Source: Parcubacteria group bacterium Gr01-1014_3 (lineage in GTDB: Bacteria > Patescibacteriota > Minisyncoccia > UBA6257 > WO2-44-18). Taken from it: a DNA stretch of 44,505 nt. The stretch's first letter is position 1; the number at the start of each line of letters is the position of its first letter. The stretch covers positions 97,024 through 141,528 of the forward strand of contig VMGF01000003.1 of the NCBI GenBank assembly GCA_007376445.1. Reading direction: 5' to 3'. This document shows, piece after piece, positions 2,108 to 41,200 of the stretch. Made by a program: the position numbers and the translations under genes. The notes beneath the pieces are model-generated. The model had not been told where the DNA came from. It searched no databases and saw nothing but the letters and a program-made list of their open reading frames with translations.

Positions 2108-2162
2108 TGCAACACCTCAAATAGCTATGGAAAGTATAGCTGATAACTATTAAAAATCTATA

Positions 2163-2293
2163 GCGGGAATACGGATTGCTTTTTGGAACGTCTCGCAGGC
2201 GGTTTTGCTTGGTTTAAAAACCGCCGAGAGAGAAGAAAACCGGCCCGCTGGAGGCCGGTTATTCTGGTTCTAAAAAGCAATCCGTATTTTCGC
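2163..2293 (+). ncRNA. conserved structured element, copy c1 (27-bp closing helix plus 87-nt two-hairpin core); family unknown
   Basis: Core 2185..2271 is near-identical to 16606..16692. The outer arms GCGGGAATACGGATTGCTTTTTGGAAC and GTTCTAAAAAGCAATCCGTATTTTCGC pair fully if three G-T pairs are allowed on the plus strand. The element ends 2 nt from the pheT stop codon. Strand call is tentative. Confidence 0.5.
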
Positions 2294-4275: not shown

Positions 4276-4283
4276 GTTGTTAT

Positions 4284-4347
4284 AATTTTAAAGTTTAAAT
4301 TTAAAATTTTAATTTAATTTATAATTTATAATTCAAAATTTAAAATT
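4284..4347. repeat. AT-rich palindromic repeat, short 64-bp form (copy B)
   Basis: Both arms are present without the central segment. The right arm overlaps the last codons and stop of pheS. The left arm ends 9 nt before the pheT ATG. Confidence 0.75.
4285..4290 (-). promoter_or_regulatory. candidate -10 box TAAAAT, 9 nt upstream of the pheT ATG
   Basis: Minus strand reads TTTAAAATtataacaacATG. There is no SD. The box is part of the repeat arm. Confidence 0.35.
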
Positions 4348-5326
4348 GATCCACGAAGCGTAGGTCGCCCGAATAAAACAGCCGGATATCATCGATCTTG
4401 TATTTGATCATCGCCAGGCGCTCTAATCCCATTCCGAAGGCGAATCCTTTAACTTGTTGCGGGTTATATTTAACGGCGTCAAAAACATTCGGATGCACCA
4501 TTCCCGCGCCCATCACCTCCAACCATTTTCCTTTCCATTTAATATCCACTTCAAGACCCGGCTCCACGAACGGGAAATAACTCGGCCGCAAACGGATATC
4601 GGTTTTCTGATTTAAAAGCTGATTAAAGAATTCGGAGATTACATATTTGAAATTGGCCAGATTTACATCCGGACCGACCATCAGGCCCTCTACTTGATGG
4701 AAGTTCACCTCGTGCGAAGCATCAGTGGCCTCAAAACGAAAAACTCGGCCGGGCACGATGATCTGAAATGGGGGCTGATGGGTTTCCATATAGCGGATCT
4801 GCATCGGCGAAGTATGCGTTCGTAAAAGCTGGCGAGAATCTTTATCTTTATATTGCGCCGGCAACCAGAAAGTGTCCCACATATCCCTAGCCGGATGATT
4901 TGGCGGAATATTCAAGGCGTCAAAATTGTAATGCTCGCTCTCTACCTCCGGACCCTCCACGATAGAAAAATTTAAACCGAGAAAAATTTCCTTGATCCGG
5001 TTCTCCATTAAGGTCAGCGGGTGAAGGTGGCCGACCCGGACTTTTTCACCAGGGCGGGTGATGTCCAATCGAGAACTGCTACTGCCCGCGCCAAGAACGC
5101 CTAGTCTCGATTTCATCGCGGACTCGATCTCTCCGCGAAGCGCGTTGGCCGCCGTTCCCGTCTCCCGCTTTTCCTCTGGCGGCATGTCTTTAAGGGAGCG
5201 CAAGATCGTAGTAAGTTCGCCGTCCTGACGGCCCAAAAACTCGTTCTTAACCGCCTCTAAATCTTTGAGATTTTGAGCTTTCGCGATCGCGGCCAGCGCT
5301 TTTTCTTTGATTTCACCGAGTGTCAT
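4340..5326 (-). CDS. pheS: phenylalanine--tRNA ligase alpha subunit
   Basis: 328 aa with class II motifs (e.g. FQIIVPGRVFRFEATDASHEVNFHQVEGLMVG and GFAFGMGLERLAM). Confidence 0.93.
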   Translation of the reverse strand: MTLGEIKEKALAAIAKAQNLKDLEAVKNEFLGRQDGELTTILRSLKDMPPEEKRETGTAANALRGEIESAMKSRLGVLGAGSSSSRLDITRPGEKVRVGHLHPLTLMENRIKEIFLGLNFSIVEGPEVESEHYNFDALNIPPNHPARDMWDTFWLPAQYKDKDSRQLLRTHTSPMQIRYMETHQPPFQIIVPGRVFRFEATDASHEVNFHQVEGLMVGPDVNLANFKYVISEFFNQLLNQKTDIRLRPSYFPFVEPGLEVDIKWKGKWLEVMGAGMVHPNVFDAVKYNPQQVKGFAFGMGLERLAMIKYKIDDIRLFYSGDLRFVDQF

Positions 5327-5358
5327 CTGAATATTCGTAGTTTAACACAAGGGGTCTT

Positions 5359-5422
5359 AATTTTAAATTTTTAATTATAAATTTTAATTTAATTTAAAAT
5401 TGAAAATTTAGTATTTAAAATT
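5359..5422. repeat. AT-rich palindromic repeat, short 64-bp form (copy C)
   Basis: Near-identical by eye to copy K (34129..34192). Confidence 0.75.
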
Positions 5423-5435
5423 ATTAAGAATTAGA

Positions 5436-9340: not shown

Positions 9341-9440
9341 TGCGTAAAAGACTTTAGCTATATTGTTAGCTATATTGTATACGAATAAAAAACCGCTTGC
9401 AAATCTAAATCTACGAATATCGAATTTATGCGAATAAACT

Positions 9441-9500
9441 AATAAACGAATCGCGAATTGATTCATTCGCTTATTCGTATATTCGTTCAGATTAGTTATT
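9441..9500. repeat. CGAATA-rich intergenic repeat (family 2), copy 1; contains the proS terminator-like hairpin
   Basis: About 60 bp, near-identical by eye to 14618..14680. Minus strand reads ACGAATAAGCGAAT-loop-ATTCGCGATTCGT followed by a T-rich tract. It overlaps the proS stop codon. Confidence 0.7.
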
Positions 9501-10730
9501 AGTTAATTTTTGAAGTTCTTGCAAACCTACCAACTTTGCCTCTTTAGAATCCCGTTTTTTAAGTTCGATCTTCGCTCCAGATTTTTCACTGATCACGGCG
9601 CGCCACGGAATGCCAAGCAAGTCGGCATCCGCGAACTTTTCTCCAGCGGAAACGTCCCGATCATCAAACAATACTTCGATTCCGGAATCTTTTAAGTCTT
9701 TGTAGATCTTTTTGGCGTTCAACTTCAGCGCGCCATTTTTACTTTTCAATTCCAGCAGATGGATCTGATATGGGGCAACTGACTCCGGCCAAATAATTCC
9801 TTTTTCATCATTATGCACTTCCACCAGCGTGGCCATAATGCGGGTTGGACCGATACCATAGGAGCCCATGATCACCGGCTGACGATTGCCGTCTTTGTCG
9901 GTGTAGGTCAGGTTGAAAGCTTCGGAATAACGCGTGCCAAGCTTGAAAACATTCGCCACCTCGATCGCCGGAGAAGATCCGATCTCACCGCCACACAGAG
10001 GGCAGATATTCCCCTTCTGAACGTGCGCGATCTCTTTATTTTGGGCGAAATCACACTGCTTGCAATAAAAAACCACGTCTTCACCCGCTGGGGCGAGCAC
10101 CTGGAATTCATGCGTGTACTCTTTGGTGAAAGCTCCGCCACTCGCTTCCGTCACCAGCGCCTTTAAACCAACTCGTTTTAAAATTTTCTGATACGCCTTA
10201 ATAACCTGCTGATAAAAATCATCCAGGCTTTCTTTTGAAGAGTGGAAACTATACAGATCCTTCATCATAAACTCCCGGCCACGGAGCAGGCCGTTTTTGG
10301 CGCGGGGTTCGGCCCGATACTTGGTCTGGATCTGATAAACCGAAAGCGGCAGGTCTTTGTAAGAATTTATAAAATGCGTGGCGATAGCCGTCACGACTTC
10401 TTCGTGGGTCCAGCCCAAGGCGAACTCTTCGCCAAATGGCGATTTGAATTCGTAAGCGACATCAGTATGCCAACGCTTGGATTTCTCCCAGTATTCTTTA
10501 GCGACGAGGGCCTGCATGAGCATTTCCTGCCCGCCGATCGCGTTCATCTCTTCCCGGATGATCCGGTTAATCTTGTCTAAGACCCGCAAACCCAACGGAA
10601 GCTGAGCGTAAACACCGGCGGACATCTTACGGATAAAACCGCCACGAATGAGCATTTTCGCGTTTATCGCCTCTTCATCCTTCGGAAAGGACTTAAGAGT
10701 TTTAGTAAATAATCTAGATTGCAACATCAT
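9492..10730 (-). CDS. proS: proline--tRNA ligase, bacterial type lacking the INS editing domain
   Basis: N-terminus MMLQSRLFTKTLK...AINAKMLIRGGFIRK, motif 2 RGREFMMKDLYSFH, C-terminal SYGIGPTRIM. Only 412 aa. CKQC...CPLC sits where INS normally lies. Confidence 0.88.
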   Translation of the reverse strand: MMLQSRLFTKTLKSFPKDEEAINAKMLIRGGFIRKMSAGVYAQLPLGLRVLDKINRIIREEMNAIGGQEMLMQALVAKEYWEKSKRWHTDVAYEFKSPFGEEFALGWTHEEVVTAIATHFINSYKDLPLSVYQIQTKYRAEPRAKNGLLRGREFMMKDLYSFHSSKESLDDFYQQVIKAYQKILKRVGLKALVTEASGGAFTKEYTHEFQVLAPAGEDVVFYCKQCDFAQNKEIAHVQKGNICPLCGGEIGSSPAIEVANVFKLGTRYSEAFNLTYTDKDGNRQPVIMGSYGIGPTRIMATLVEVHNDEKGIIWPESVAPYQIHLLELKSKNGALKLNAKKIYKDLKDSGIEVLFDDRDVSAGEKFADADLLGIPWRAVISEKSGAKIELKKRDSKEAKLVGLQELQKLTNN

Positions 10731-13886: not shown

Positions 13887-13893
13887 TGACTTA

Positions 13894-14000
13894 AATTTTA
13901 AATGCTAAATTTTTAATTTTAATTTAATGACCAAATGTTAAATTTCAAAAATTAAATCATTGAAAATTAATTTAAAATTTATAATTAAAAATTTAAAATT
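13894..14000. repeat. AT-rich palindromic intergenic repeat, full-length copy D (107 bp)
   Basis: Same length and nearly the same sequence as copy A. The left arm ends 8 nt from the rseP ATG. Confidence 0.85.
13895..13900 (-). promoter_or_regulatory. candidate -10 box TAAAAT, 8 nt upstream of the rseP ATG
   Basis: Minus strand reads gcattTAAAATttaagtcaATG. No SD. Confidence 0.35.
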
Positions 14001-14024
14001 ATTAGGATTTGGGTTATTTAGCGA

Positions 14025-14576
14025 TTACTCCGCTATTTCCTTTATTTTAGCATTCAAAAGCGATTCCATCTCCTCGTTGGTTTTATCCACGGCGTTTTGA
14101 ATTTTTTTGCGGCCGTTGAACTTTTGGTCCTCCGTAATCAACTTGGTTTTAAAAGACACTTCAATCTTTTTATTAGCGTCATCGCGCGAATTACGGACGC
14201 GGATCTTGACCTGCTCGGTCAGGGATTTAACCAATTTCTCCAGATCCCGTCGCCGGTCATCGGTCAATTGCGGCAAAGTAATGCGGACTAAGCTGCCGTC
14301 CGCGGAAGCGCTCACGCCCAATCCGGAAGTCTCAATAGCTTTCGCGATCGGACCGGCGGCGTCTTTATCCCAACAACTCACATTGATCTCACGCGGCGGA
14401 AGTATGCTAATCGAGCCCAATTGTTTAATGGTGAATTGCTGCTCCATATAATCCACCTTAACGTTCTCGATCAGCTTGGCGCTCGGGCGGTTAGTGCGGA
14501 TATTGGAAAGTTCTTGTTTTAATCCATCCGATAAAGCGCGGAGAGATGTTTCTAGGTCTTTTATGATTTGATCCAT
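14025..14576 (-). CDS. frr: ribosome recycling factor
   Basis: MDQIIKDLETSL...RTNRPSAKLIENVKVDYMEQ...LTDDRRRDLEKLVK is typical RRF. The ORF-track start at 14618 runs into the family-2 repeat; ATG 14576 gives a normal-length protein of 183 aa. Confidence 0.9.
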   Translation of the reverse strand: MDQIIKDLETSLRALSDGLKQELSNIRTNRPSAKLIENVKVDYMEQQFTIKQLGSISILPPREINVSCWDKDAAGPIAKAIETSGLGVSASADGSLVRITLPQLTDDRRRDLEKLVKSLTEQVKIRVRNSRDDANKKIEVSFKTKLITEDQKFNGRKKIQNAVDKTNEEMESLLNAKIKEIAE

Positions 14577-14617
14577 GAATATAAATCTACAAATAACGAA
14601 TTCATACGAATATACCA

Positions 14618-14680
14618 ATAAACGAATTACGAATTAATTCATTCGCTTATTCGTATATTCGTTCAGATTAGTTATTCGTT
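14618..14680. repeat. CGAATA-rich intergenic repeat (family 2), copy 2
   Basis: Shares AATAAC-TAA-TCTGAACGAATATACGAATAAGCGAATGAAT... (minus strand) with copy 1, including what looks like the last codons and stop of proS. Confidence 0.7.
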
Positions 14681-14682
14681 AA

Positions 14683-14766
14683 TTACGGCTTACAAACTAT
14701 CGGAAGGAAGTATAATAAAACCCCCGCGAAAATCAAGAATAAAATTATTGTGTACGCTTTGTCCAT
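14683..14766 (-). CDS. candidate 27-aa hydrophobic micropeptide (MDKAYTIILFLIFAGVLLYFLPIVCKP)
   Basis: Read by hand; it is below the ORF-track length cutoff. Single TM-like stretch. TATAGA (14775-14780) lies 8 nt upstream of the ATG. The family-2 terminator module follows the stop. Confidence 0.3.
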   Translation of the reverse strand: MDKAYTIILFLIFAGVLLYFLPIVCKP

Positions 14767-14856: not shown

Positions 14857-15582
14857 CTAGAGAAGAGCCGCTTCGAGTTGCAAGCGCTTATTCACATTAA
14901 ACTGATTAATCAGCGCCCAGCGATAGGTCAGCCTCCGTAAAACCTCAAAATTTTTCACCGGGTCTTTAGCGAGATCGCGCATCACGGCAAACACAAAATC
15001 GTCTATCAGCGCCTCGCCTTCTTTCTCCCGATCCGCTAGGTCCCTCAAAAAATCTTTTTTACCCTTTAGATCGGACATTAAAAAATCATCGGCGCTTACT
15101 TGCCCGCCTTTGGCGTTGGCTTTCGCTTCTGGAATCTCGCCAGAAATAAAAATCCTCTGAAATCGTGAAACTACGGCCGGTAAAATGGCGTCGGGAGATT
15201 TAAGCAGTAAGAAGATCAGTGCGTGCGCTGGAGGCTCTTCGCCTATCTTCAAAATCGCGCCTTGGGCTTGCGGGGTCAATTGATCGGCGTTATCGATGAT
15301 CAAAGTCCGACGAACCGACTTTATCGGCTTCTGCCATAAAAACTGAGTGGATTCACGCACCAGATCAATACCGCCGGCGATGTTGGCGTCTATGAATTTA
15401 TAATCAAATAATATCTGCTCCGCTTTTTCCCATTTATCATTCTCTAAAAAATTCGCTAAATAATTCACCGCGTTGACCCGTTCGCCTATTCCCGTGTGGC
15501 CATACAAAAGATACCCATGGGATAACTTTTCACTTTTAATTAAACGTTTAAAATATTTTTCTAACTCCGCAACTTTGGCCAT
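14857..15582 (-). CDS. holB: DNA polymerase III subunit delta prime
   Basis: SHGYLLYGHTGIGER (degenerate P-loop), RTLIIDNADQLTPQAQGAILKIGEEPP, LPAVVSRFQ. I prefer ATG 15582 over the ORF-track GTG 15597. Confidence 0.8.
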   Translation of the reverse strand: MAKVAELEKYFKRLIKSEKLSHGYLLYGHTGIGERVNAVNYLANFLENDKWEKAEQILFDYKFIDANIAGGIDLVRESTQFLWQKPIKSVRRTLIIDNADQLTPQAQGAILKIGEEPPAHALIFLLLKSPDAILPAVVSRFQRIFISGEIPEAKANAKGGQVSADDFLMSDLKGKKDFLRDLADREKEGEALIDDFVFAVMRDLAKDPVKNFEVLRRLTYRWALINQFNVNKRLQLEAALL

Positions 15583-15588
15583 ATCACA

Positions 15589-15594
15589 ATTATA
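15589..15594 (-). promoter_or_regulatory. consensus -10 box TATAAT, 6 nt upstream of the holB ATG (leaderless configuration)
   Basis: Minus strand reads gtgTATAATtgtgatATGgcc. Confidence 0.45.
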
Positions 15595-15601
15595 CACGAA
15601 A

Positions 15602-15635
15602 CCCCTCCCTTATCGCTTCGCGCAAAAGGGAGGGG
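15602..15635. terminator. 10-bp GC-rich hairpin (CCCCTCCCTT / AAGGGAGGGG) between element c3 and holB
   Basis: Perfect 10-bp stem with T-rich sequence on either side. On the minus strand it would insulate holB from the upstream island. Confidence 0.5.
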
Positions 15636-15641
15636 TTATTG

Positions 15642-15809
15642 TTTTCTCGCAAAAATTTCGGTCGAGAGCAACTCCTTCTTCGGAACGTCTCGGAGGCGGT
15701 TTGGCTTGGTTCAGCAAACCGCCGAGAGAGAAGAAAATCCGGCCGCTGGAGCCGGATTATTCTGGTTCCGAAAAGGAGTTGGTGGAGGGTACCGAAATTT
15801 TTGAGAAAG
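15642..15809 (+). ncRNA. conserved structured element, copy c3 (core 15682..15769 plus two nested closing helices)
   Basis: The core aligns with c1/c2. Both internal hairpins carry paired substitutions (GGCGGTTT/AAACCGCC; ATCCGGC/GCCGGAT). Outer helix TTTCTCGCAAAAATTTCGGT pairs with ACCGAAATTTTTGAGAAAG. Confidence 0.5.
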
Positions 15810-16034
15810 CCAATAAAAAAGGCCCCGCTCAGAGGGGAGGTATCGTTCTGGAAACTCCAGACGACCCTCTTTCCCTCCAAGCGGGGCACCGTAGACCCAG
15901 CTGTCATCCAATCTAGCCATGCCGCCAGGCACGCTTCGCCAGCTAGACCGCTGTCGCCTTCGGCCGCGCAGGCTCTTACCGCAACCGGATGGGCGGCAGA
16001 ATCGAACGGACATCATCTTCGGACCGGGCGTTTT

Positions 16035-16187
16035 CTACTGCTCGCCGTGGTCTTCGGACTTGGCCGTCAGCTCCGGCGGCACATCCACCGGCTTCGGATC
16101 CTTGCACCGATCCTGCCGACGGACCGCATCTTCGTTGTCGTTGTCCTCGGACGTACGCTCGTTTGCGAACATCTCGTATTCCTCCAT
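16035..16187 (-). CDS. candidate 50-aa acidic small protein (MEEYEMFANERTSEDNDNEDAVRRQDRCKDPKPVDVPPELTAKSEDHGEQ)
   Basis: Hand-translated. AAGGTGA lies about 12 nt upstream, which is distant. It sits in the GC-rich island downstream of the first small ORF. Confidence 0.3.
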   Translation of the reverse strand: MEEYEMFANERTSEDNDNEDAVRRQDRCKDPKPVDVPPELTAKSEDHGEQ

Positions 16188-16270
16188 TTTCAAAAGAACT
16201 CACCTTGCACTCAGGCCACTACCACCCTTCGACAAGCTCAGGGTAAACAAGTAATGGGCTGAGAAAAGGT

Positions 16271-16293
16271 GGGGATGGCGACAGGCCATCCCC
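16271..16293 (-). terminator. 9-bp GC hairpin (GGGGATGGC / GCCATCCCC) after small ORF 1
   Basis: Perfect stem with a 5-nt loop. On the minus strand it is followed by ACCTTTTCTC. Confidence 0.45.
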
Positions 16294-16347
16294 GACTCCC
16301 ATGGTATGTCCAACTCTCTCGCAAGAGTGAGGCCATGGAAGAACTAG

Positions 16348-16482
16348 CTACAGCCGGATCTCGGCTTCGATGCGGCCGTTGCGCCGCTTGACCGTCTCCT
16401 TGACGACGGCCACCTTGAGCCGGCGAGCCAGATTGATCAGCGCCAGCGTCGACACCCTGAAAGCCTGCTTTCTGTCCTTCAT
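16348..16482 (-). CDS. candidate 44-aa basic small protein (MKDRKQAFRVSTLALINLARRLKVAVVKETVKRRNGRIEAEIRL)
   Basis: Hand-translated. AAGGAGGG lies 4 nt upstream of the ATG, a near-consensus promoter is just upstream, and a hairpin terminator is downstream. Confidence 0.55.
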   Translation of the reverse strand: MKDRKQAFRVSTLALINLARRLKVAVVKETVKRRNGRIEAEIRL

Positions 16483-16508
16483 TTGTCCCTCCTTAAGGAT
16501 CTGTCGGT

Positions 16509-16536
16509 ATTATAGCATACCCACAGAATCTGTCAA
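16509..16536 (-). promoter_or_regulatory. near-consensus sigma70 promoter (TTGACA - 16 nt - TGcTATAAT)
   Basis: Minus strand reads cTTGACAgattctgtgggtaTGcTATAATaccgacagatccttAAGGAGGGacaaATG. Confidence 0.65.
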
Positions 16537-16582
16537 GCCCTCCTTCCCTTCCAGCCACCCCCCCTCAAATAAGCCTATTTAT

Positions 16583-16715
16583 GGGGGTTTCGGGAATCAC
16601 TTTTCGGAACGTCTCGGAGGCAGTTTTGCTTGGTTTAAAAACTGCCGAGAGAGAAGAAAACCGGCCCGCTGGAGGCCGGTTATTCTGGTTCTGAAAAGTG
16701 ATTCCCGAAACCCCC
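16583..16715 (+). ncRNA. conserved structured element, copy c2 (28-bp closing helix, core 16606..16692)
   Basis: GGGGGTTTCGGGAATCACTTTTCGGAAC pairs with GTTCTGAAAAGTGATTCCCGAAACCCCC, with one G-T pair on the plus strand. It ends 7 nt from the stop codon of the second mreB. Confidence 0.5.
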
Positions 16716-16722
16716 AACCAGC

Positions 16723-17730
16723 CTAGCGCTTATTCAGCAAAGTCCTCTTATAGACCTCTAAATGGTTCAAAATAAGCCCAGTTCCCTTTGCCACGCAGAA
16801 CAACGGCTCATCGGCAATATAGGCCTGCACGCCCGTCATCCGCTTGAAGAACTCATCGATATTGCGAAGCTGAGCGCCACCGCCGGAAAGGATCAGGCCT
16901 TTTTCCATAATGTCCGCCACCAGCTCCGGCGGGGTTCTGCTGAAGACATCTTGCACGGAAGCCGCTATGTCCAAAAGATATGGATTCAGAGCCTCGGCAA
17001 TCTCATTGGAGTTGATCACAATATCCCTCGGCAAGCCAGAAACCATATCCCTTCCGCGGGTTTTAAATTCCAGACGCTCCTTGGTCGGCAAGGCGGAACC
17101 GGCTTCGATCTTGGCCGCTTCAGCGGTCTGCTCACCGATGTGCAGGCCGTACTTCTTTTTAATATAATCCATGATCGCGTGATCAAATTTATTACCGGCC
17201 ACCCGCAAACTAGACTGGGCCACGATACCACCCAGAGCTACTACAGCCACCTCGGAAGTACCGCCGCCGATATTGATTATCAGGTTTCCGGAATGATTGT
17301 TGATTGGAACACCGGCGCCCAGCGCGGCCAGAATCGGCTCCTTGACGATATAGGCGTCTTTAGCGCCCGCTTCCCTCGCGGCATTAACTACCGCGCGCCG
17401 CTCAGTCGGCGAAATACCGGCCGGCACAGAAATAACAACTTCCGGACGGAAGAGGTTGAAGGAGCCAGTAGCTTTGGTAATAAAATACCTCAGCATCGCT
17501 TTAGTGATGTAGTAATCGGCGATTACGCCATCTTTCATTGGGCGGTACGCGATGATATCGTCCGGTGTGCGACCGATCATGTCTTTTGCTTCTTTACCGA
17601 CGGCCAAAACACCATTATCCGGACTACTCAAAGCCACGATGGTCGGCTCGTTAACAATAAAACCGCGTCCCGGCACGAAGACGATCGTATTCGCGGTACC
17701 AAGATCTATGCCAATTTTTCGAGTGAACAT
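16723..17730 (-). CDS. mreB: MreB paralogue (copy 2)
   Basis: 335 aa with IGIDLGTANT, NIGGGTSEVAV and a full-length actin fold. Confidence 0.88.
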   Translation of the reverse strand: MFTRKIGIDLGTANTIVFVPGRGFIVNEPTIVALSSPDNGVLAVGKEAKDMIGRTPDDIIAYRPMKDGVIADYYITKAMLRYFITKATGSFNLFRPEVVISVPAGISPTERRAVVNAAREAGAKDAYIVKEPILAALGAGVPINNHSGNLIINIGGGTSEVAVVALGGIVAQSSLRVAGNKFDHAIMDYIKKKYGLHIGEQTAEAAKIEAGSALPTKERLEFKTRGRDMVSGLPRDIVINSNEIAEALNPYLLDIAASVQDVFSRTPPELVADIMEKGLILSGGGAQLRNIDEFFKRMTGVQAYIADEPLFCVAKGTGLILNHLEVYKRTLLNKR

Positions 17731-17737
17731 GGGGCGT

Positions 17738-17830
17738 AAATTTTTAATTTTAAGTTTTAAGTTTTAAATTAATTTTAGAATTTATAAATTTGATCATTTG
17801 TTTAAAATTGAAAATTTATAATTTAAAATT
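17738..17830. repeat. AT-rich palindromic repeat, degenerate copy E
   Basis: Recognisable left and right arm motifs. The right arm overlaps the murA stop codon. Confidence 0.55.
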
Positions 17831-19145
17831 ATTCTTTTCTAATAATGCTAGCTCCCAATTTTCTCAATCTCTCATCTATCCGCTCATATCCCCTATCAAT
17901 TTCCTCGGCGCCGGTGATCACCGATTCTCCATCAGCGATCAGGGCGGCGATGATATGAGCGATCCCAGAACGCAGATCTCTTACTTCTAAATTCGCGGCT
18001 TTCAATTTGCTCGGTCCATGTATCGCCGCGCTATGGTTATGATCGCGTCCGGCAAAGCGGCAGGAACCTCCTCCTAGACACTGTGAGAATACTTTAATCT
18101 CCGCGCCCATTAAATTCAAGTCTTTCACATAACTGAAGCGATCTTCATAAACTGTTTCGTGAATGGTCGAATCGCCATCGGCTTGCGTCAGAAGCACCGC
18201 CACTGGCTGCTGCCAATCGGTCATGAAGCCCGGATACGGATCTGTTTCTATATTTGCCGGTTTTAAAATTTTATTTTCCGGAGGCCGATAAAATACTATG
18301 CCTCCACTTTGAATTTCATACTCGCCGCCGATTTTCCTCAAAACATTTAAAAAAGTGATCAGGTCGTCATGCCTGGCTTCTTTGACTAAAATGCGCCCAC
18401 CGGTGGCGACCGCCAGAGACGCGAAAGAAACCGCTTCGTTGCGATCCGGCATAATCCGATAAGTCACTCCGCGCAGCTCTTTTACGCCATCGATATAAAT
18501 ATTTCGGTTAGCGCCCACTTCAATGATCGCCCCCATCTGCTGAAGCATTTTTATTAGATCCAATACTTCCGGTTCGACGGCGGCATTATGAATCTCCGTT
18601 AGTCCAACGGCCAAAACGGCGGCCAAAATCGTGTTCTCGGTCGCGCCAACGCTTGGATAACGAAAAGTAATATTCGCGCCATGCAATCCATTCTTCGCCG
18701 AAGCGACATAGCGATCTTCAAGGATTTCGATCTCGGCGCCCATCGCCGTCAAAGCGTTAATATGAATATCCACTGGACGTGGACCGATTTTATCACCACC
18801 CAAGATCGGTACTTCCGCCTCCCCCACCCTGGCAAGGAGCGGACCGAGCGCCAGAATCGGAATGCGGTTACGGCGGCTTAAGGAAATTACTTTGGAATTT
18901 TTAATCTCCGGCGTGTGAATTTTCAGAACCGAACCATCCGGCCGATTTTCGACTTCGATATTAGACCCGATAGACCGGCAAAGTTCAGCCGTGATCTCAG
19001 TGTCTCCAATCTCCGGAAAATTCTCCAGAACGCACGGCTCGGAAGTCAGAATAGAAGCCACCATCATTTTGGTCGCCGCGTTCTTCGCTCCCGCAAGACG
19101 AATCTCGCCTTCCAGCTTTTTTCCTCCTCGGATAATAAACTTCAT
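17829..19145 (-). CDS. murA: UDP-N-acetylglucosamine 1-carboxyvinyltransferase
   Basis: MKFIIRGGKKLEGEIRLAGAKNAATK..., GGDKIGPRPVDIH. 438 aa. Confidence 0.92.
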   Translation of the reverse strand: MKFIIRGGKKLEGEIRLAGAKNAATKMMVASILTSEPCVLENFPEIGDTEITAELCRSIGSNIEVENRPDGSVLKIHTPEIKNSKVISLSRRNRIPILALGPLLARVGEAEVPILGGDKIGPRPVDIHINALTAMGAEIEILEDRYVASAKNGLHGANITFRYPSVGATENTILAAVLAVGLTEIHNAAVEPEVLDLIKMLQQMGAIIEVGANRNIYIDGVKELRGVTYRIMPDRNEAVSFASLAVATGGRILVKEARHDDLITFLNVLRKIGGEYEIQSGGIVFYRPPENKILKPANIETDPYPGFMTDWQQPVAVLLTQADGDSTIHETVYEDRFSYVKDLNLMGAEIKVFSQCLGGGSCRFAGRDHNHSAAIHGPSKLKAANLEVRDLRSGIAHIIAALIADGESVITGAEEIDRGYERIDERLRKLGASIIRKE

Positions 19146-25143: not shown

Positions 25144-25151
25144 GCTTTTGA

Positions 25152-25257
25152 AATTTTAAATTCCCAATTTTTAATTTTAATTTAATGACCAAATATCAAA
25201 TTTAAAAATTAAATCATTTAAAATTAACTTAAAATTTATAATTAAAAATTTAAAATT
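25152..25257. repeat. AT-rich palindromic intergenic repeat, full-length copy F
   Basis: 106 bp with the same arms and centre as copies A and D. The left arm ends 9 nt from ATG 25143. Confidence 0.85.
25153..25158 (-). promoter_or_regulatory. candidate -10 box TAAAAT, 9 nt upstream of ATG 25143
   Basis: Minus strand reads gggaattTAAAATttcaaaagcATG. Confidence 0.35.
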
Positions 25258-25334
25258 CGATGTCTTCAAGGTGCTAATTTTCAAAATTTTGGATTTTAGT
25301 CATTAGAATTTGTTTCAAGCTTCGTGTTTAGAAT

Positions 25335-26516: not shown

Positions 26517-26544
26517 AATCTACCTTTAGTATAACATTTTAGAT

Positions 26545-26650
26545 AATTTTAAATTCTAAATTTTTAATTTTAATTGAATGATTAAATGCTAAATTTAAAA
26601 TTAAATCATTGAAAAATTCATTTAAAATTTAAAATTAAAAACTTAAAATT
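26545..26650. repeat. AT-rich palindromic intergenic repeat, full-length copy G
   Basis: 106 bp, more diverged in the centre than the other full-length copies. Confidence 0.8.
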
Positions 26651-26676
26651 AAAAGCTGCGCTATAGCGCAGCTTTT
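26651..26676 (-). terminator. rho-independent terminator overlapping the stop codon of the 26661..27632 gene
   Basis: AAAAGCTGCGC-TATA-GCGCAGCTTTT is a perfect palindrome with the TAG stop lying in the loop. On the minus strand it is followed by TTTTAATTTT. Confidence 0.7.
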
Positions 26677-27632: not shown

Positions 27633-27708
27633 CAAACACCTCGTTGTTAAGGAACGGAACTAGCTTAACAGAAAATTTACAAATTATCTAGCTAACCTCT
27701 TTTCAAAT

Positions 27709-27817
27709 AATTTTAAATTCTAAATTTTTAATTTTAATTTAATGACTAAATTAACAAATTTTTAAACATTTTATCATTTTGATTTAATTTAAAATTTATA
27801 ATTGAAAATTTAAAATT
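27709..27817. repeat. AT-rich palindromic intergenic repeat, full-length copy H
   Basis: 109 bp with both arms conserved and a diverged centre. Confidence 0.8.
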
Positions 27818-27821
27818 CTTA

Positions 27822-29576: not shown

Positions 29577-29583
29577 TGTTATA

Positions 29584-29620
29584 AATTTTAAATTCTAAAT
29601 TTTTAATTTTAAATGAATGT
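29584..29620. repeat. AT-rich palindromic repeat, left arm only (copy I)
   Basis: AATTTTAAATTCTAAATTTTTAATTTTAAATGAATG. The arm ends 8 nt from the alaS ATG (TAAAAT at 29585-29590). The matching right arm lies on the far side of the next gene. Confidence 0.7.
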
Positions 29621-29634
29621 TAAAATGAGTAATT

Positions 29635-29997
29635 TCAAATTTTTCTTTCGAGTGTTTGGGTTATTTTTGAAAATATCAGAGTAAGCTCCTGTACCTCTTT
29701 CCATAATTTACGAGCAACATCTTCTATCTCTGGGTTGGCCTTTGCGATCCGCTCCAGCCAATACTTGGTTTCTCGAGCTTCTTTTTTACAAATGTATATC
29801 TTGTTCTTAAAATCTTTTTGAGAACTGGCTCCATTGGCTTCCATATAGTTCGCGCCTATAGATGTCGCTGACCGTACTAATTGACTGACTAGTGGCGTAT
29901 TTATAAGGTCTTTCTTTATGCTGCGCGCAAATGGAAGCACTTCATCGCTAAATTTAGCGGTTCTATCCTCTAGGTCGTATTTTTTATCATTTGGCAT
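29635..29997 (-). CDS. four-helix-bundle protein (23S rRNA intervening-sequence protein family)
   Basis: LVSQLVRSATSIGANYMEANGASSQKDF...ICKKEARETKYWLERI matches the family signature from memory. Confidence 0.8.
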   Translation of the reverse strand: MPNDKKYDLEDRTAKFSDEVLPFARSIKKDLINTPLVSQLVRSATSIGANYMEANGASSQKDFKNKIYICKKEARETKYWLERIAKANPEIEDVARKLWKEVQELTLIFSKITQTLERKI

Positions 29998-34116: not shown

Positions 34117-34128
34117 GTACTTATACTG

Positions 34129-34192
34129 AATTTTAAATTTTTAATTATAAATTTTAATTTAATTTAAAATTGGAAATTTAAAATTTAAAATT
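34129..34192. repeat. AT-rich palindromic repeat, short 64-bp form (copy K)
   Basis: Near-identical to copy C. It lies between the stop of the 34194 gene and the LamG start. Confidence 0.75.
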
Positions 34193-34193
34193 G

Positions 34194-35192
34194 TTATGGT
34201 TGCGGTTCAGGCGTAGGTTCTAGAGTTGGTTCTGGTTCCGGCGCAGGCTCGCCCGCCGCGGCCGGTTCTGGAGCTGGTTCCGGTATTGGTTCAGGTGCAG
34301 GTTCTGGGGTTGGTTCGGCTTCGCTCACCACAGGCGGTTCCGGAGTCGGAATGGGCTCTGGCGTGGGTTCGGGGGTCGGCTCTGGAGTCGGAGTTGGTTC
34401 TGGGATTGGAGCAGGTTCAGGGGTCGGCACAGGAGTCGTCGGAGGAAGCTCAAAAGTACACTCCCCCGGGATCGTCTCGGCTTTGCCGTCACGAACTACC
34501 AAGCAGAATGGCTGGCGGGTATTTAAGTCATACGTGGTGATGCCGGTCGGTTTGTCGGCCGTACCAATTTGGAGCTTCTCGGTTATAAGAGATTTCAATG
34601 CCAAGAAGCCGTCCTTAATACCATTCAGTATGCTCGCGAAAAACCCGCTGACCGTTTCCACGGTCGCAGCGATAAATGATGGCGGTGGCGCAGTATCGCT
34701 AAGCGCGAGAATATCTTCTGGCTTTAAAATAGAATCCGTAATTTTTTTGGCTTTTTCAATCTTTCTCTGAAGCTTCGCTACTTTAATAGAATCAGGATCT
34801 TCTTTGTCTAACTCCTCATCAAATTTTTGCTGTAATTCTTGGATTTTCTCGTTCTTAGTCACTAACTTATCATCGACCCACACTCCTTTTCCTTTTTCGC
34901 CGCGCCACTTAGCCCTATCTTTCCGATCTTTTGGTAATTGATCCGGATCAATATCATCGTATTGCAAACCAATCGTGCCTGGATTTTGAGCAGAGATTCT
35001 ATCCATACACTCAACGAGTGTCTCTTTTTCAACGCAGGCTGATGCCACAAATTGAGTTACGGTAATACCTCCATCCGGTCTATAAAAAACACGGACATTT
35101 GGTAGCGTTGATACATCAGCAAATACCAAAAATGGCATTGCTGATGCAGTCAGCGCGATGGAGAGAATTGTTTTCTTCATAGAATATGTCAT
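34194..35192 (-). CDS. secreted protein with C-terminal (E/T/A/I)P low-complexity tract
   Basis: Signal peptide ([21 protein letters not shown]). The last ~90 aa are PEPTPEP-type repeats. The start could be ATG 35180. It begins 8 nt after the giant gene's stop. Confidence 0.75.
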
Positions 35193-35200
35193 TGATTGTT

Positions 35201-38200
35201 CTATTGTAATCCGGTTGCAGTTACTGTTGCGCCATTACAATCAGCCGCTGAATTAGTCATAGTTTTCGTTTGAATACGCACAGAAGAAGGTGTTATTGGA
35301 GATTGGCTTTGCGGATACATTTCCATAATGCAGTCCGCGGCGGCCGTACCCCAGCCACCCAGAGCCACGGCATAATAGCCGGTAGAGAATGGCTGCGCCC
35401 AAGTAACCGTAAAGTCGCCAGTCGTGGTATCGGTTACCGAGCTAACATTAAATGCGTTTCGGATAGCCGCTGTTGCCGTGACTTGATCATACATCAACCA
35501 TCCCTTCACTATATTATTAGCATACAACGTATTCTTCGCCGGTGTCGAAGAGGCAATATCAAATGGAGCGAAGGTAATTTCGGTCACGGTAGTAGAAGCG
35601 GTAAAGGTAACATTGCCATTAAACTGCGCGTCGCCATTTACAGTCAGCTTACCCTGGACGTCAGAGTTATTTTGAACATTCTGATTACCCACATCAAGAG
35701 AGCCTAGCCTAGCCGAACCGGTTTCAACACCGCCAAGATCGTATACAGCGAGTTCGCAATGATTCAGGTTATCGCCGCAGATACCGGTATTCGCTTGAGC
35801 TCCGGTATAAAGATATTTGCCCACAGGCCAGGCCTTAAAAGTTCGAATATCCCGATTAATGCCAGCGACAGGCTTGGCATTAAATGGATTAGAAACATCC
35901 ACGATTGCCACCTCGCAACCTGTCAGCGTGCTTCCAGAGCACGATCCAGAGGAATTTACGCTAGCGACATAAGCATATTGGCCAGCAACCTGCACGCTCG
36001 AAGTACCGGCAGTCCCGCCAATACTCACACCACTCAGCGCCGACACAGAACTGGTCGAAGTATTCAAAATGATCAATTCACAGCCAACCACGGTTGTGCC
36101 CGAGCAAGTTCCGGAGTTTGTTTCTTGTGTGACATACGCGTATTTATCGACCATGTAAGGATTCCGGATGGTGTTCGGAGAAAGATCGATACCCGCGATT
36201 TGAGTGGTAGAGGCCGGATTGGAAATATTATAAATAGCAAATTCGCAACCGGTGAGGTTTGTGCTGTCGCAGGTCCCAGTTTTTGCATTCTTGGTGACGT
36301 ATGCCCGATTGCCGACTATAGACAAACCGGTTCCATTCACCTCGCCGAGTTCCGTTCCGCCAATAACATACGGGACACTTGATGTTGACCATTCATACGT
36401 CAAGAATTCACAGCCTCCGAAGGTCGTCGCGGAACAAGTGGTGTTATTTTTGTCACTGACTACGTAGATGTATTTACCAACGGCGACGACATCTTGAAAG
36501 CCTTCGGCTCTATTCGCCGCGGCAACCGCGACCGGCGCCGTCGGATCGGAAATATCATAGATTACAAGCTCGCAACCATTCGGCCCGTCAAAAGCTCCTT
36601 CGCAATTATTAAGATCATCAAGGACTTTAACTACATAGGCATACTTGCCGGATACAAATATTTTATTCGCGGCAGTACCGCCTGAATCATCAGCTCCACC
36701 AATCGCGGTCGTAGAGGCAACATTGGATATATCATAAATACTAAGCTCACAACCCTCCAGGGATTGTCCCGCGCAGTCGCCGCCGGATGCAGACCTTCGG
36801 ACGACATAGGCATACCTGCCGACTATCACAAAATCCTGGACGCCTGATGTGGAGTTGAAGTCAACTCCACTGATCGGTTTGGGCTCCCCTGGTACCGCGA
36901 GAATCGTCGAACTCGCGATGGTAAACCTCTCTGTCGGAGTACTGGTGCCAATGCCGATATACCCATTCACGCCGCTCACAATAAATAACGGGTTTGTGAC
37001 AGTCGTGGTGCTACTGTCGCCGATCACGAAGATCGGAGTATTAGAACCAACCACTCCCTGCACCGCCTCAATAGAAATCTGACCCCATGGCGTTGTGGTG
37101 CCAAAACCAAGCTTTCCATATTCACCATGAATAGTAGATGTGGCGACAAGGCCATTACCGATATAAATCTGGCGGCCAAAGATATCGATACCGCCAGTAA
37201 TAGTGGTGGTACCGACCACTTCAAGCGCTGTGCTTGGATTGATATCGCCGATACCAAGTTGTCCGGTGGGACTAATGACCACTCTTTCGGTAGCCGATCC
37301 GCCAGTCGCTTGCGTGAAGAATCCGATCTGGCCCGCGTCAGTACCAGCGCTGGTGACATATCCCACTATTCTGGCGACAGAATCATACCCCGCGTCTGCT
37401 GTTGCAGCTCTGATAAATTCAATTCCGCCAAGCAAGTTGCCAGAACCCACTCCGTTACCATGACTGCCCAGCTCAATCATACCTCCTCGATTACCGGTAT
37501 TACGACCGAAGATCGTCAGCGTAGGATAACCGTTCGGATCAGAGGCATAAATATCTCCCACTCCGGCATTTGGCCGGCCAATGGCCACGCCGCCGCCCTG
37601 CGCGTTGAAGGTCGGGCTAGCTTCGCCATTTCTTCCGCGTACCAACAACCCATCATAAATATCCGCTGAACCCTTCACGAATAATCCGCCAGCGGAGGAA
37701 GTCGCCACGCCAACTCCAAGCCCTTGCGTGATATACGCGTTGCCCTGTACAGAAAGCGCGGAAGAAAGCGTGGCCGGACTGGTAGTGCCAACGCTCAAAG
37801 TTGACGTGGCGATAAATGATGAAGCGGTGGATGTGGCTTCGATGTTGAAATTGCCATGAGCTAGACCGAAACCGTGAATAGCGAATGTCGCTCCCGGAAC
37901 GGTAGTTCCGATGCCGACATTATAATTCGCATCAACATGGAGACCTTCGATGGCGGTACCATCTCTTGTAAGGGTCACCGTGTCGTTAGTGGCGATGTAG
38001 CCGACATAACCCAGGAAAGCACCCGCGTTCCGGAATTGCATGGCAGCATTACCAGTCGTGGGATTAACCCAAAAAGAATTGCTGTTGATCTCCAGCTCAG
38101 CACTAGGATTATCTGTGCCGATTCCGACAAAGCCATTATTCCCGCTCACATAAATAAACGGAGTCGCGGTGCCTTGATCCCCCACCACGAAGATCGGGGT

Positions 38201-41200
38201 ATTCGATCCCGTAATTCCTTGAACTGATTCAATGGAGACTTGGCCGAAGGGAGAAGTAGAACCAAAACCTAGCTGGCCATATTCTCCGTGGATAGTAGTA
38301 GTTGCCTGAAGGCCGTTGCCAACAAAAAGATCTGAGCCGGAAACATACAAATCCCCGCCGACAAAGGTATCGGCGCTACTGACTGTTAAGGCGGAAGTAG
38401 CTCCAAAGGAACCGCCGTTATTAAATTGTACTCCACCGCTGGAACCTCCCGGAGTGCCACTGCCGCAACCCGTGCAAGTTCCTTGAATATCAATAGTGCC
38501 AGTAAATGCCACGTCACCGCTGAACACGGAAGTAGTGGCGACCGACAAACCAGTTCCTGGAGTCGTCGTACCAAGCGCTAATTTTCCGCCTTGCTTTATG
38601 CTGACGGTTGTCACGCCACGCGCTCCAACATTAAACGAGTCGCCATCGGCGGCTTGATTGATCAGTACGGCCGGAGATGTAGACGAATGCGAAACTGACA
38701 ACAAGCCGCCAGGAGTAGTTGTACCGATACCGACACGGCCATTTATGATTCCGCCTTTGCCATCTGACTCGGCATAGATTGTCAAAATATCCGTAGAGTC
38801 AACCTGCGCGGAGTAGCCCTCAACAGTTCCCCAAATTGCCGCCGAGGTTACTGGAAGATCAACCCAAGCCACCGCGCCGGCGTTGGTTTCAAAACTCATG
38901 ATCCCAGTTTGCAAATTTTCGATCACCGTCGCCCCACTGGAATAAACTGCAAAGGATGGAGTCGAGGTTCCCTCATCGGCAATGACAAATGATGGCAATT
39001 CCTCGTCTCCTGTATCGAGAATTTCAACAGATACCTGACCCCATGGAGAGGAAGTGCCGAAGCCTGTATAACCATTAACTCCGCTCACATAAATAAATGG
39101 CGAAGAGGAACCTTGGTCGCTGACTACAAAGATCGGAGTATTAGAGCCGACTACGCCTTGCAAGCTCTCAATCGCAAATTGTCCAAAAGGTGAGGTAGTG
39201 GCATAACCGAAAGATCCGTCGCTTGTAACGCGTAATCTTTCAAGCGCCCCCGACTGGAATGGCCGAGTCACAATTGCCAAATCGGCGCTGACATCTCCAG
39301 TTTTCGACTTAACTGCCGCGATACCCACACCAGCGTTGCTATTATAGTCACCCAGCACAAAAGCCAGTCCAGCGGCGGCATTTGCCTCCGAGCTAGGGTT
39401 GTTAATAATAATATCGTGCCAATTATCAGCGCCAGCTCCAGCGCTAAAAGCGGTTGATCGAGTTGGAGTTTGAATGTGGAGCAATCCCAATGGACCAGTT
39501 AATCCAATTCCAACTCTTTCCGTGAAGTAGCTTTCGCCTCCCGACACCACCAATCCCCCGGCCGTAGCCGCGAGACCGTTGGTAGAAGTAACTCCGGCGA
39601 AGGTCGTCGTACCTGATCCCGCAAAATTAACTGTTCCCTGTACATCCAGGCCACCGGTAATATTTACATCCCCGCCAAATATGCTCGTTCCAACGACTGC
39701 GAATTCAGATGACGGCGAAGATGAGCCGACACTCAAAGTCGAAGTCGCGATAAAGCTGGAAGCAGTCGAGGTGGCTTCAATGTTGAAGTTGCCGTGCGCT
39801 ACGCCGAAGCCGTGGATGGCGAATTGAGTGCCCGGAGTGTCAGTTCCAATACCAACATTGGTGTTGTTGGCGAGATACAACTGGTTAGCATTGGTCGTAT
39901 CCGTCACGCCACTACCTGCTTCTAATAATAAATCACCAATGTTCGATCCTTTATGTAGGGCGTAAATTTTGGCATTTATATTGGCGTTATCATAGAAAGT
40001 GATCGCACTACCAGAATTTGCGTTACCATCGCTATTTGTAAATCGCATAGCCTCCTCTGCCGTGTTAAGAGTAGTCTGTATAGTTAATTTCGCGGCTGGA
40101 TTATCGGTGCCAATACCGATCAATGGAGCGGCGTCAGTGGATCTGCCAGAAACATAGAAAACTGGAGATGAAGAACCTGAATCTCCTATCACGAAGATCG
40201 GGGTATTCGATCCCGTAATTCCCTCGACTGATTCGATTGATACTTGGGCGTATGGACTACTGGAACCAAATCCTAGATTCCCGTACTGTCCATACAAAGT
40301 GGAAGTAGCGCTTTTGCCATTACCAATGAAGAGTTGCTTGCCATAGATGTTTAATCCATTGGTGATGCTGGTGGTGCCCACGACCTCCAGTCTTACCTCC
40401 GGATTCGTGTCTCCAAGACCGAAATTGCCAGTCGTCGCGCTTACGGTTAGAAAACGACCCGTAGTAGCGTCATCATTATATTGCAAAAAGAAAGCATTGG
40501 TAGCCGCCGCGGTGTTGTCCGTGATGAGCTGCCAAAGATTAGTAGTGTCAATTCGTAGGTTATATCCTGCAATACCATTAGGAGCGCCTGACACATTGCT
40601 CGCAGTGATCTGTGGCGAGGCATTAGCAAAAACCTCTAAATGCGAAGTTGGGCTAACCGTTCCAATACCAACCTTTTCCGCCAGATAAGTTTCTCCACCA
40701 GATACATGCAACCCTCCCGCCGTCGCCGCGAGACCATTAGTCGAAGTGACGCCGTTGAATGTGGTCGTGCCTGCTCCCGCGAAATTAACTGACCCTTGAA
40801 CATCAAGAACGCCGGTAATATTCACATCACCTCCAAAGACTGAATTTCCTACTACTGCAAAGGGTGATGACGGAGATGAACTGCCGACAGACAATGTGGA
40901 GGTGGCGATAAAGCTGGAAGCAGTAGAGGTGGCTTCGATTCCTAAATTACCTTTAAATAATCCGCCACCTCCAACACTCAACTTTTGGCCAGGAGAAGCA
41001 GTGGCCAGTCCAAGATCGCCATCGCCTTGCAACAAGAGAGCGCTAGTAAAATCACCAAGCTGAACTCGGATAGCTTCAGCGGTTTCTTCACCCTGATAAA
41101 GATAAAATGCCGGTTGAGAAGAAGTGGCGGATTGAATAGTGAAAGTACCGCCTGGGGTAGTGGTGCCGATACCGACTCGCTCTCTGAATACTCCGCCTTT

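Follow-up and report, generated by a model that had tools for sequence, protein, structure and literature searches.

The closest described counterparts of the locus analysed here are the dual-function RNAs (e.g., RNAIII/hld, SgrS/SgrT, SR1/SR1P, and AzuCR; reviewed in PMC12612679 and PMC12310071) and the structured non-coding RNAs that are flagged by intergenic regions (IGRs) both long and rich in GC in GC-based IGR screens (PMC6429828, PMC8632094, PMC11109978). The locus is a GC-rich island (approximately positions 16536 to 15815, minus strand) between holB and the second mreB gene in a stretch of 44,505 nucleotides (nt), hereafter the window, from contig VMGF01000003.1 of Parcubacteria group bacterium Gr01-1014_3. 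The island is probably one self-contained, natively promoted, vertically inherited transcription unit that combines a dual-function RNA with a small protein, and comparison with related loci (given below by L numbers) assigns it to a subclade of groundwater Patescibacteria, at the mreB-holB junction. As in dual-function RNAs, a single promoter-to-terminator transcript would carry a Shine-Dalgarno (SD)-led open reading frame (ORF) of <50 amino acids (aa) together with a conserved structured RNA, standing alone between housekeeping genes. Both a small ORF under protein-level selection (ratio of nonsynonymous to synonymous substitution rates (dN/dS) ~0.24; 9/8/17 variable columns at codon positions 1/2/3; eight variants) and covarying structure outside the ORF (the 3' hairpin and the stem of the hairpin H1) are found, whereas the island differs from the known examples in showing no homology to them in sequence or structure (no Rfam match) and in being longer than typical small RNAs at ~0.7 kb. 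It resembles the RNAs of the GC-based screens in being the longest and most GC-rich IGR of the window, with covarying hairpins and its own terminator, but it holds a peptide gene under purifying selection and is not placed upstream of a cis-regulatable gene, since a strong terminator and the -10 box of holB intervene. The best reading is an orphan gene for a small protein and a structured RNA, matching no described family in Rfam, Pfam, PHROGs, NCBIfam, PADLOC, or exhaustive HMMER searches.

The window is a 44.5-kb core-genome stretch in which all genes lie on the minus strand. The gap between the ATG of holB (15582) and the stop codon of the second mreB (16723) measures 1140 nt (15583-16722), and its GC content of 0.56 is the highest of all window IGRs (0.06-0.44 in the 19 others). 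The GC content of the island core (15815-16540; 0.583) is matched by just 0.5% of 726-nt windows. An earlier reading made from the letters alone (the sequence-only reading) had pointed to a long GC-rich gap free of backbone genes at this site, and the gap was found as described, as was every feature named within it at the position given (e.g., the minus-strand promoter TTGACA-16-TGcTATAAT at 16536-16509, the SD-led basic ORF of 44 aa, and a 9-bp GC hairpin at 16293-16271). The features of the island are, in the direction of transcription:

16509..16536, minus strand: island promoter, with TTGACA, a 16-nt spacer, and the extended -10 box TGcTATAAT (12/12 match)
16348..16482, minus strand: orf44, a 44-aa basic ORF (16482-16348; codon periodicity), with the SD AAGGAGGG at 16494-16487, 4 nt before the ATG
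16261..16293, minus strand: H1, the 9-bp GC hairpin (16293-16271) with a conserved tail, ACCUUUUCUC (terminator scan)
16203..16266, minus strand: conserved leader stem formed by CACCUU and AAGGUG, with H2 (CAGCCC...GGGCUG) inside it (RNAalifold)
16035..16172, minus strand: orf45, a 45-aa acidic peptide gene with the SD GGAGG at 16185-16181 (eight variants, dN/dS, GC content at third codon positions (GC3) 0.80)
15894..15964, minus strand: 3' RNA hairpin with an 11-bp stem and the apical sequence UGGYGAAGCG...GGCGGCAUGG (covariation, model R2)
15815..15886, minus strand: island terminator, a ~30-bp hairpin (CCCCGCUUGGAGGG...CCUCCCCUCUGAGCGGGG) followed by U6 (read from sequence, fold)

The evidence for vertical inheritance comes from related genomes, in which the order murA-mreB-holB-frr-rseP is conserved. 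In eight distant loci (L002, L003, L004, L133, L134, L135, L137, and L138) mreB and holB are adjacent with a gap of <=140 nt, providing the empty site that the sequence-only reading had suggested looking for; the DNA at the junction is thus an addition in one subclade, where it amounts to 580 nt in L131, 1.1 kb in the window, and 2158 nt in L132. True homologues of the island occur in L130, L140, L141, L142, L143, and L153/L154, and the flanking genes in these relatives are close to those of the window (holB of L130, 84% amino-acid identity; mreB of L140, directly upstream of the island, 86% nucleotide identity; N-terminus of holB in L153/L154, ~90% by eye). The island itself is 88% identical to that of L140 (mreB 86%) and 77-85% identical to that of L130 (holB 78%), and gene order is kept on both sides (mreB-island in L140; island-holB in L130 and L153). 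Since the divergence of the island tracks that of the flanking mreB and holB, the comparison indicates vertical inheritance of the island along with the adjacent genes, as opposed to recent acquisition.

The promoter is the sole 12/12 match to TTGACA-16-TATAAT in the window, where 0.02 would be expected. Its 26-nt core (GACAnnTTnTGTGGnTATGCTATAAT) is common to the window, to three related loci (L132:2052-2079, L140:1959-1986, and L143:19-44), and to nine GTDB loci (L144-L152). The GTDB search, with 22 specified bases against both strands of 596 Gb and ~0.07 chance matches calculated, returned these nine matches, all from Patescibacteria (Portnoybacteria, Harrisonbacteria, Parcubacteria, and metagenome-assembled genomes labelled Saccharibacteria), and viral contigs yielded none. 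Across distant lineages the promoter is near-invariant (cTTGACAnATTnTGTGGrTATGCTATAAT) and often follows a G-run. Downstream of most GTDB matches lie 250-1000 nt with a GC content of 0.55-0.67, in host genomes with a GC content of 0.40-0.46, and these stretches consist either of RNA-like sequence ending in a terminator or of SD-led ORFs with GC3 >0.8. The promoter-driven units of L131, L132, and L144-L152 are evidently RNAs different from the island, as none of them matches R2, the model of its 3' hairpin; those of L144-L152 are also without a match in Rfam, and the leader pattern of the island has none in GTDB or viral contigs.

The expression style of the island is indeed unlike that of its neighbours, as the sequence-only reading had held: the island unit combines SD motifs and a long leader with -35/-10 promoter boxes of consensus sequence, versus AT-rich IGRs and mostly no SD in the surrounding genes. 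The accompanying claim that backbone genes have no SD at all applies to most genes by a simple motif check but is a slight overstatement, since four of the 33 larger backbone genes checked were flagged (1045, 1712, 10778, and 26661) and gene 26-916 has, by eye, GGAGG ahead of an internal ATG. The further suggestion that this grammar is foreign to the host fails, because the promoter core recurs in nine GTDB genomes, all of them Patescibacteria, and in no viral contig; the distribution argues that these organisms have a second expression regime of their own, which is the one used by the island. A literature search on promoters or non-coding RNAs of Patescibacteria found nothing relevant.

The coding evidence is centred on orf45. 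An acidic ORF had been predicted here at 50 aa; the ORF is present, but it comprises 45 aa (ATG 16172, stop 16035), and the upstream 'ATGGAGG' with which the longer version begins is, according to seven homologues, the SD of orf45. The eight variants (the window copy and P0002-P0008) have in common MFxSERxSxDNxNEEAVRRQDRCKDPxPVDxxPE, with the first 34 residues conserved and a C-terminus that diverges in both sequence and length, and in all of them GGAGG stands 3-8 nt ahead of the ATG. The reading frame is intact over 34 codons without indels, of which the flanks have many. Pairwise dN/dS over the conserved part ranges from 0.06 to 0.82 (median ~0.24), and GC content is periodic by codon position (p = 7e-5). 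The low dN/dS together with the third-position excess among the variable alignment columns is the signature of a translated gene under purifying selection. Moreover, high GC3 persists across homologues with synonymous divergence (dS) up to ~1, which speaks for a composition that is being maintained and against foreign DNA yet to ameliorate. An exhaustive HMMER search with a profile of the peptide added just one more distant member, P0008. Neither orf44, orf45, nor the ORFs of L132 match a family in Pfam, PHROGs, NCBIfam, or PADLOC (for orf44 and orf45, nothing at E <= 1), and the peptide sequence MFANERTSEDNDNEDAVR is put forward as a metaproteome query for the island product.

Several RNA structures surround this gene. 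The stem of H1 covaries, and its tail (CCCCACCUUUUCYCAG) is invariant in six homologues as well as in L132/L001; by its form, H1 looks like a terminator or attenuator. The leader stem with H2 adopts the same fold in the window, L140, L130, and L142, with paired bases that are invariant and hence provide no covariation evidence, and a conserved U-tract before orf45 is able to pair with the downstream GGAGG. In the 3' hairpin, three pairs show double changes (AU, GC, CG, and GU at one pair) while the apical sequence is invariant, and R2 matches island homologues only, at 70-92 bits. The motif occurs twice in tandem in L141 (537-669), and the 3' region of the island folds with z = -3.9. Additional 3'-domain sequence is present in L130, L140, L141, and L153 (~190 nt in L130 and L153). 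The terminator, which had been judged weak, is instead strong, with a GC-rich hairpin of ~30 bp and T6, and is kept in the relatives whose contigs reach it (L130, L140, L141, and L153). At gathering thresholds Rfam gave 0 matches on the window, the best matches by E-value being at chance level (<20 bits), and none on the homologues L130, L140, L141, and L153, where the best were again at chance level; ARAGORN detected no tRNA or tmRNA. A divergent RNase P, tmRNA, 6S, or SRP gene was dropped as a candidate on the basis of these empty searches, in which Rfam was applied to the window, the island, and the homologues.

The slot between the promoter and H1 (approximately the first 220 nt of the transcript) varies in content by lineage: it comprises ~35 nt in L143 and ~190 non-coding nt in L140 and L141, and is taken up by a 59-aa basic ORF in L132 and by orf44 in the window. 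The GC content of orf44 by codon position is 0.61/0.39/0.89 (p = 7e-6). Of the structure predictions that had been proposed for the two small peptides, the one for orf44 gave a single helix (AlphaFold2, pLDDT 94), which renders a fold search meaningless, and the one for orf45 was uninformative. A weak similarity between orf44 and the 59-aa ORF occupying the same slot in L132 (E = 0.045, single comparison) is not relied on. The ORF is possibly translated, yet it does not appear to be a conserved part of the unit. A 31-nt match of 81% identity links positions 296-326 to 16378-16408 and is in frame with gene 26-916 (..DDEKAIKRRN..) as well as with orf44 (..VVKETVKRRN..); with ~0.1 chance matches by rough estimate, it may be a coincidence or a shared fragment.

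The mreB-holB gaps of other lineages hold further units. The gap of L132 (1006-3163; 2.2 kb) contains three perfect TTGACA/TATAAT promoters, an AT-rich ArsR-like gene between 22-nt direct repeats (ttaacctattcgcacgaatagg), a GC-rich 146-aa ORF, the 59-aa basic ORF followed by an H1-type terminator, and an unclassified RNA-like unit of ~460 nt, and that of L131 contains a different promoter-to-terminator unit of ~300 nt. The 146-aa ORF is one of the cargoes that follow the promoter core. Its homologues are named only in Patescibacteria, and the one in a Sungbacteria genome is found at an unrelated locus, where a TTGACA/TATAAT promoter, a structured leader, an SD, and a terminator accompany it. 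The H1 terminator motifs of L130 (30-67) and L132 (2387-2424) are 97% identical over 38 nt, although the holB proteins of these two genomes, both from the same groundwater sample set, are respectively 84% and 47% identical to that of the window. This pattern hints that lineages found together have exchanged island modules by recombination.

Taken together, these features suggest a possible course of expression. A strong sigma-70-type promoter would produce a GC-rich RNA of ~0.7 kb, beginning with the lineage-variable slot of ~220 nt, which here would contribute the SD-led orf44 and in relatives other sequence or almost none. H1, the P2/H2 stem, and the pairing of the U-tract with the next SD would together probably gate read-through and translation, the 45-aa acidic peptide would be translated from the conserved GGAGG, and the 3' part would form a structured RNA domain with the covarying hairpin, ending at the strong intrinsic terminator. 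The terminator would insulate holB, which is served by a separate -10 box. The anatomy, the conservation, the selection on the coding sequence, the covariation, the lack of elements in relatives, and the native spread of the promoter are observed; that the whole unit is co-transcribed, that H1 and the U-tract act as a gate, and that the RNA domain has a function is inferred.

Some observations weigh against this reading of the island. Co-transcription is assumed to proceed through H1 in spite of its terminator-like form, and no convincing separate promoter for orf45 was found; an internal candidate (TTGAGT-17-CAAAAT) was rejected as weak and as one from which transcription would begin within the SD. 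Translation of orf44 is unproven despite its strong SD and marked GC3 periodicity, since a word-indexed search for homologues returned orf44 alone. The dN/dS of orf45 rests on 34 codons, with the comparison between the window and L140 near neutral (0.82), and the AlphaFold2 model of its peptide, predicted to be mostly disordered, is of low confidence (pLDDT 62) and uninformative. Additionally, the window copy is without ~190 nt of the 3' domain found in L130, L140, L141, and L153, and may be degenerating.

The island is flanked by two copies of a structured element, c2 and c3, of which a third copy, c1, occurs elsewhere in the window:

2162-2293, plus strand: c1, after pheT (135 bits with the model R1)
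15637..15815, plus strand: c3, with its core at 15669-15781, flanked by the terminator of the island and the hairpin of the holB promoter
16582..16716, plus strand: c2, with a three-way-junction core of ~95 nt and a 29-bp outer stem specific to c2, starting 6 nt past the mreB stop codon

A covariance model built from the three window copies (R1) scored c1, c2, and c3 at 135, 134.3, and 116.1 bits, all on the plus strand, so that the direct orientation of the two copies beside the island, as described in the sequence-only reading, is correct. The folds of the three copies have z between -6.4 and -10.3 versus shuffles (c2, -89.1 kcal/mol, z = -10.3; c3, -84.9 kcal/mol, z = -6.4). Other copies occur at L131:17724-17901, L139:3136-3265 and 15552-15627, L152:1316-1452, and L153:681-792. 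Compensatory changes affect 31/44 pairs among eight copies from five genomes, and the paired cells comprise 310 Watson-Crick, 11 G-U, 3 A-C, and 7 other combinations in an alignment that was fitted to the model and is hence biased towards structure. Conserved motifs include GGAACGUCUCG.AGGC, the loop GCUUGGUU, GCCGAGAGAGAAGAAAA, the loop CGCUGGA, and UUAUUCUGGUUC. Each copy has outer stems of its own sequence, and these pair nearly perfectly, every imperfection in the outer stems of c1 and c2 being a G-U on the plus strand. The P2 hairpin is missing altogether from one copy in L139, and in the L131 copy its loop is enlarged by an insertion of 66 nt. The element has no match in Rfam, and in GTDB a 17-mer of its core gave chance matches only and a gapped element pattern one chance match.

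The elements resemble REP/BIME, ERIC, Correia, and BOX/RUP sequences in that c2 and c3 are ~135-180 nt long, multi-copy, strictly intergenic, self-complementary, and polymorphic for presence in close relatives; they differ in their conserved three-way-junction core with compensatory pairs, and in outer stems that vary yet pair. Nor do c2 and c3 fit miniature inverted-repeat transposable elements (MITEs), as conserved terminal inverted repeats are lacking, target duplication is not visible by eye, and the window contains no transposase. A structure under selection, as RNA or as single-stranded DNA, accounts for the pattern better than a substrate of a transposase does. An orthologous c3 is present in L153 (123 bits) and absent from L130 and L141, and c2 is present in a 97%-identical relative (L128) and absent from L140; by this distribution c3 would date back to the ancestor that the window lineage shares with L153, and c2 to the one it shares with L128, and the island is judged to be older than the elements. 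Each of the two copies is thus best described as an insertion, made independently of the other, of a dispersed three-way-junction repeat with covarying pairs into the spacer on its side of the island.

The arrangement of two direct copies around GC-rich DNA had led to the proposal that the elements delimit or target an inserted cassette, which would make them recombination or targeting sites of a mobile unit, comparable to those bounding the cargo of an integron. The layout of structured site, cargo, and site in direct orientation, with sites that fold as imperfect hairpins, is shared with attC cassettes, and both the empty junction in distant relatives and the lineage-specific content of the junction (580 nt in L131, 2158 nt in L132) are compatible with such a cassette. 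However, R1 detected no element beside the island on the flank covered by each contig in L130 (c3), L141 (c3), or L140 (c2), so that cargo and site do not move together, and this was the very observation that the sequence-only reading had named as telling against its own model. The elements are moreover solitary elsewhere (c1, L131, L152, and L139, which has two clear copies and a weak third with E = 0.004), at varied intergenic sites and in both orientations; c2 and c3 are just 87% identical; the island diverges at the rate of its flanking genes; and its cargo has its own promoter. It is the core of the element that is conserved and the stem or ends that vary, the reverse of attC sites and of MITE terminal repeats, and the inner stem (GGAAC...GTTC[TC][GA]A) departs from the R''/R' pattern RYYYAAC...GTTRRRY, GTTC being a misfit to GTTR. 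No intI with Pc/attI lies within the 44.5 kb, and no integrase, recombinase, transposase, or reverse transcriptase was found in the window by Pfam among 34/35 large ORFs (the 2993-aa ORF 35201-44182 being unscanned). The cassette is consequently highly improbable, and in our view already refuted by L130, L140, and L141; the resemblance reflects two repeat copies that came to lie, by chance or site preference, on either side of a resident gene older than they are. Repeats at both borders are also typical break points at which GC-rich foreign reads could have been joined in a chimeric assembly, and some short contigs do terminate within elements (L126 and L128). Against this, the contigs of three other assemblies, which jointly cover 15735-16926, reproduce both mreB-c2-island and island-c3 at 99.8-100% identity, which makes a chimeric join across the island very unlikely; L130, L140, and L153 carry the island at the same locus, and L153 has the identical order terminator-c3-holB at the junction. 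This exclusion draws on contigs of other assemblies and of relatives, as far as is possible without reads, and leaves the chimera a probability barely above nil.

Three other explanations accept the island as real but assign it a different nature. A small regulatory or toxin-antitoxin (TA)-like module had been offered as an alternative to the cassette; the first half of that description comes close to the reading favoured here, whereas a TA pair finds little support, with neither co-conservation nor a family match. A two-gene addiction module of the basic orf44 and the acidic orf45 would, like type II TA systems, consist of two adjacent small ORFs of opposite charge that share one strong promoter and have an SD each, and the confident prediction for orf44 is a single long helix of highly basic character. 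The partners are nevertheless not inherited together, since orf45 is kept without orf44 in L143 (~35 nt in the slot) and in L140 and L141 (non-coding slot); a terminator-like hairpin and ~175 nt separate the two ORFs; and nothing was recognised in Pfam, PHROGs, NCBIfam, or PADLOC, all of which renders the module quite improbable. A purely non-coding structured RNA gene, in which the ORFs would be incidental and untranslated, is unlikely: structured non-coding RNAs are classically recognised by a long GC-rich IGR in a genome with AT-rich IGRs (PMC6429828, PMC8632094), covariation is seen in the hairpins, and disorder is predicted for most of the peptide, but this explanation is at odds with the third-position excess and low dN/dS of orf45, with a frame that stays free of indels over 34 codons between flanks that have many, with an SD conserved at the correct distance, and with the GC periodicity. 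The remaining possibility, a decaying, functionless remnant of GC-rich DNA acquired horizontally from a host bacterium or phage, would account for the outlying composition, for GC3 values of 0.8-0.9 like those of high-GC organisms, and for a window copy with a 190-nt deletion and the strain-specific insert orf44. It is rather improbable given that the island is kept, with purifying selection and covariation, across lineages 14-22% apart in housekeeping genes, that its promoter is native to Patescibacteria, and that it has no viral matches. Furthermore, no close homologue in a high-GC donor was found among GTDB representatives, and the 146-aa ORF of L132, the single GC-rich gene of a comparable type that was checked, likewise has homologues named only in Patescibacteria.

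The surroundings of the island are those of the backbone, with the gene order pheST, PBP2, mreCB, aminoacyl-tRNA synthetases, rseP, frr, holB, second mreB, murA, ribosomal proteins, rpoA, and alaS. The boundary towards holB is formed by a further region that belongs to the backbone and not to the island:

15583..15636, minus strand: holB upstream region, with a GC hairpin at 15600-15636 and TATAAT at 15594-15589, 6 nt before the ATG at 15582 (read from sequence)

Because the -10 box lies just 6 nt ahead of the ATG, the holB mRNA is probably leaderless. TATAAT is found 6-7 nt before the holB ATG in four lineages (window 15582-15594, L130:864-885, L131:9985-10003, and L153:866-882), with a GC hairpin ahead of it in three or more of these, and many backbone genes begin a few nt past a TAAAAT-like box. 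Most backbone IGRs contain a very AT-rich repeat family (AATTTTAAATTTTTAATTTTAATTTAAT and inverted versions; GC 0.06-0.22), probably representing backbone promoter/terminator modules (e.g., 1535-1681, 4281-4352, 5356-5427, 13891-14036, 17736-17835, 25149-25262, 26542-26655, 27706-27821, 29581-29651, and 34126-34196). A 107-nt intergenic repeat, 90% identical between its copies, lies upstream of the first mreB (9402-9508) and downstream of holB (14578-14684), and includes the motif TATTCGTATATTCGTTCAGATTAGTTATT (9472 and 14648), which occurs a third time near 19237. A second compositional outlier occupies positions 1-1560, downstream of c1. Within it, gene 26-916 (GC up to 0.64, GC3 0.73) has predicted membrane and coiled-coil segments, a weak Rz-like spanin match, and the promoter TTGACG-17-TAATAT with TATGC before it and TATGCTAATAT at 930-940, and both this gene and gene 1045-1506 of the same stretch have a GGAGG SD, unlike the backbone. 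In its promoter, SD, and GC3, gene 26-916 follows the expression style of the island. Gene 29635-29997 belongs to the 23S rRNA-intervening-sequence protein family (PF05635). ORF 35201-44182 encodes 2993 aa with many internal repeats and is preceded by Laminin_G_3-repeat proteins, which together we take to be large surface proteins typical of such organisms.

A broader interpretation is tentative and, in its full form, doubtful. The island may belong to a phylum-wide class of self-contained, GC-rich, SD-dependent mini-genes, driven by the nearly invariant 28-nt promoter in Patescibacteria genomes whose core genes mostly do without an SD; in this class it would act as an RNA-plus-peptide regulator, with a 3' hairpin binding a dedicated partner (possibly the acidic peptide) and a slot that exchanges modules. 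The exchange of slot modules is supported by the near identity of the H1 terminator motifs in L130 and L132 despite the divergence of their holB proteins.

Patescibacteria have tiny, poorly understood genomes, and to our knowledge almost nothing is known of their small RNAs, small proteins, or promoter logic. The locus yields a conserved orphan peptide family, a conserved hairpin motif in RNA, a promoter core of phylum-wide occurrence by which similar units can be searched for, and a covarying three-way-junction repeat, and its analysis removes the tempting but wrong idea of an integron-like cassette system in these organisms. If it is true that promoter-marked GC-rich mini-genes form a coherent class, they would constitute a second expression regime in these reduced genomes.

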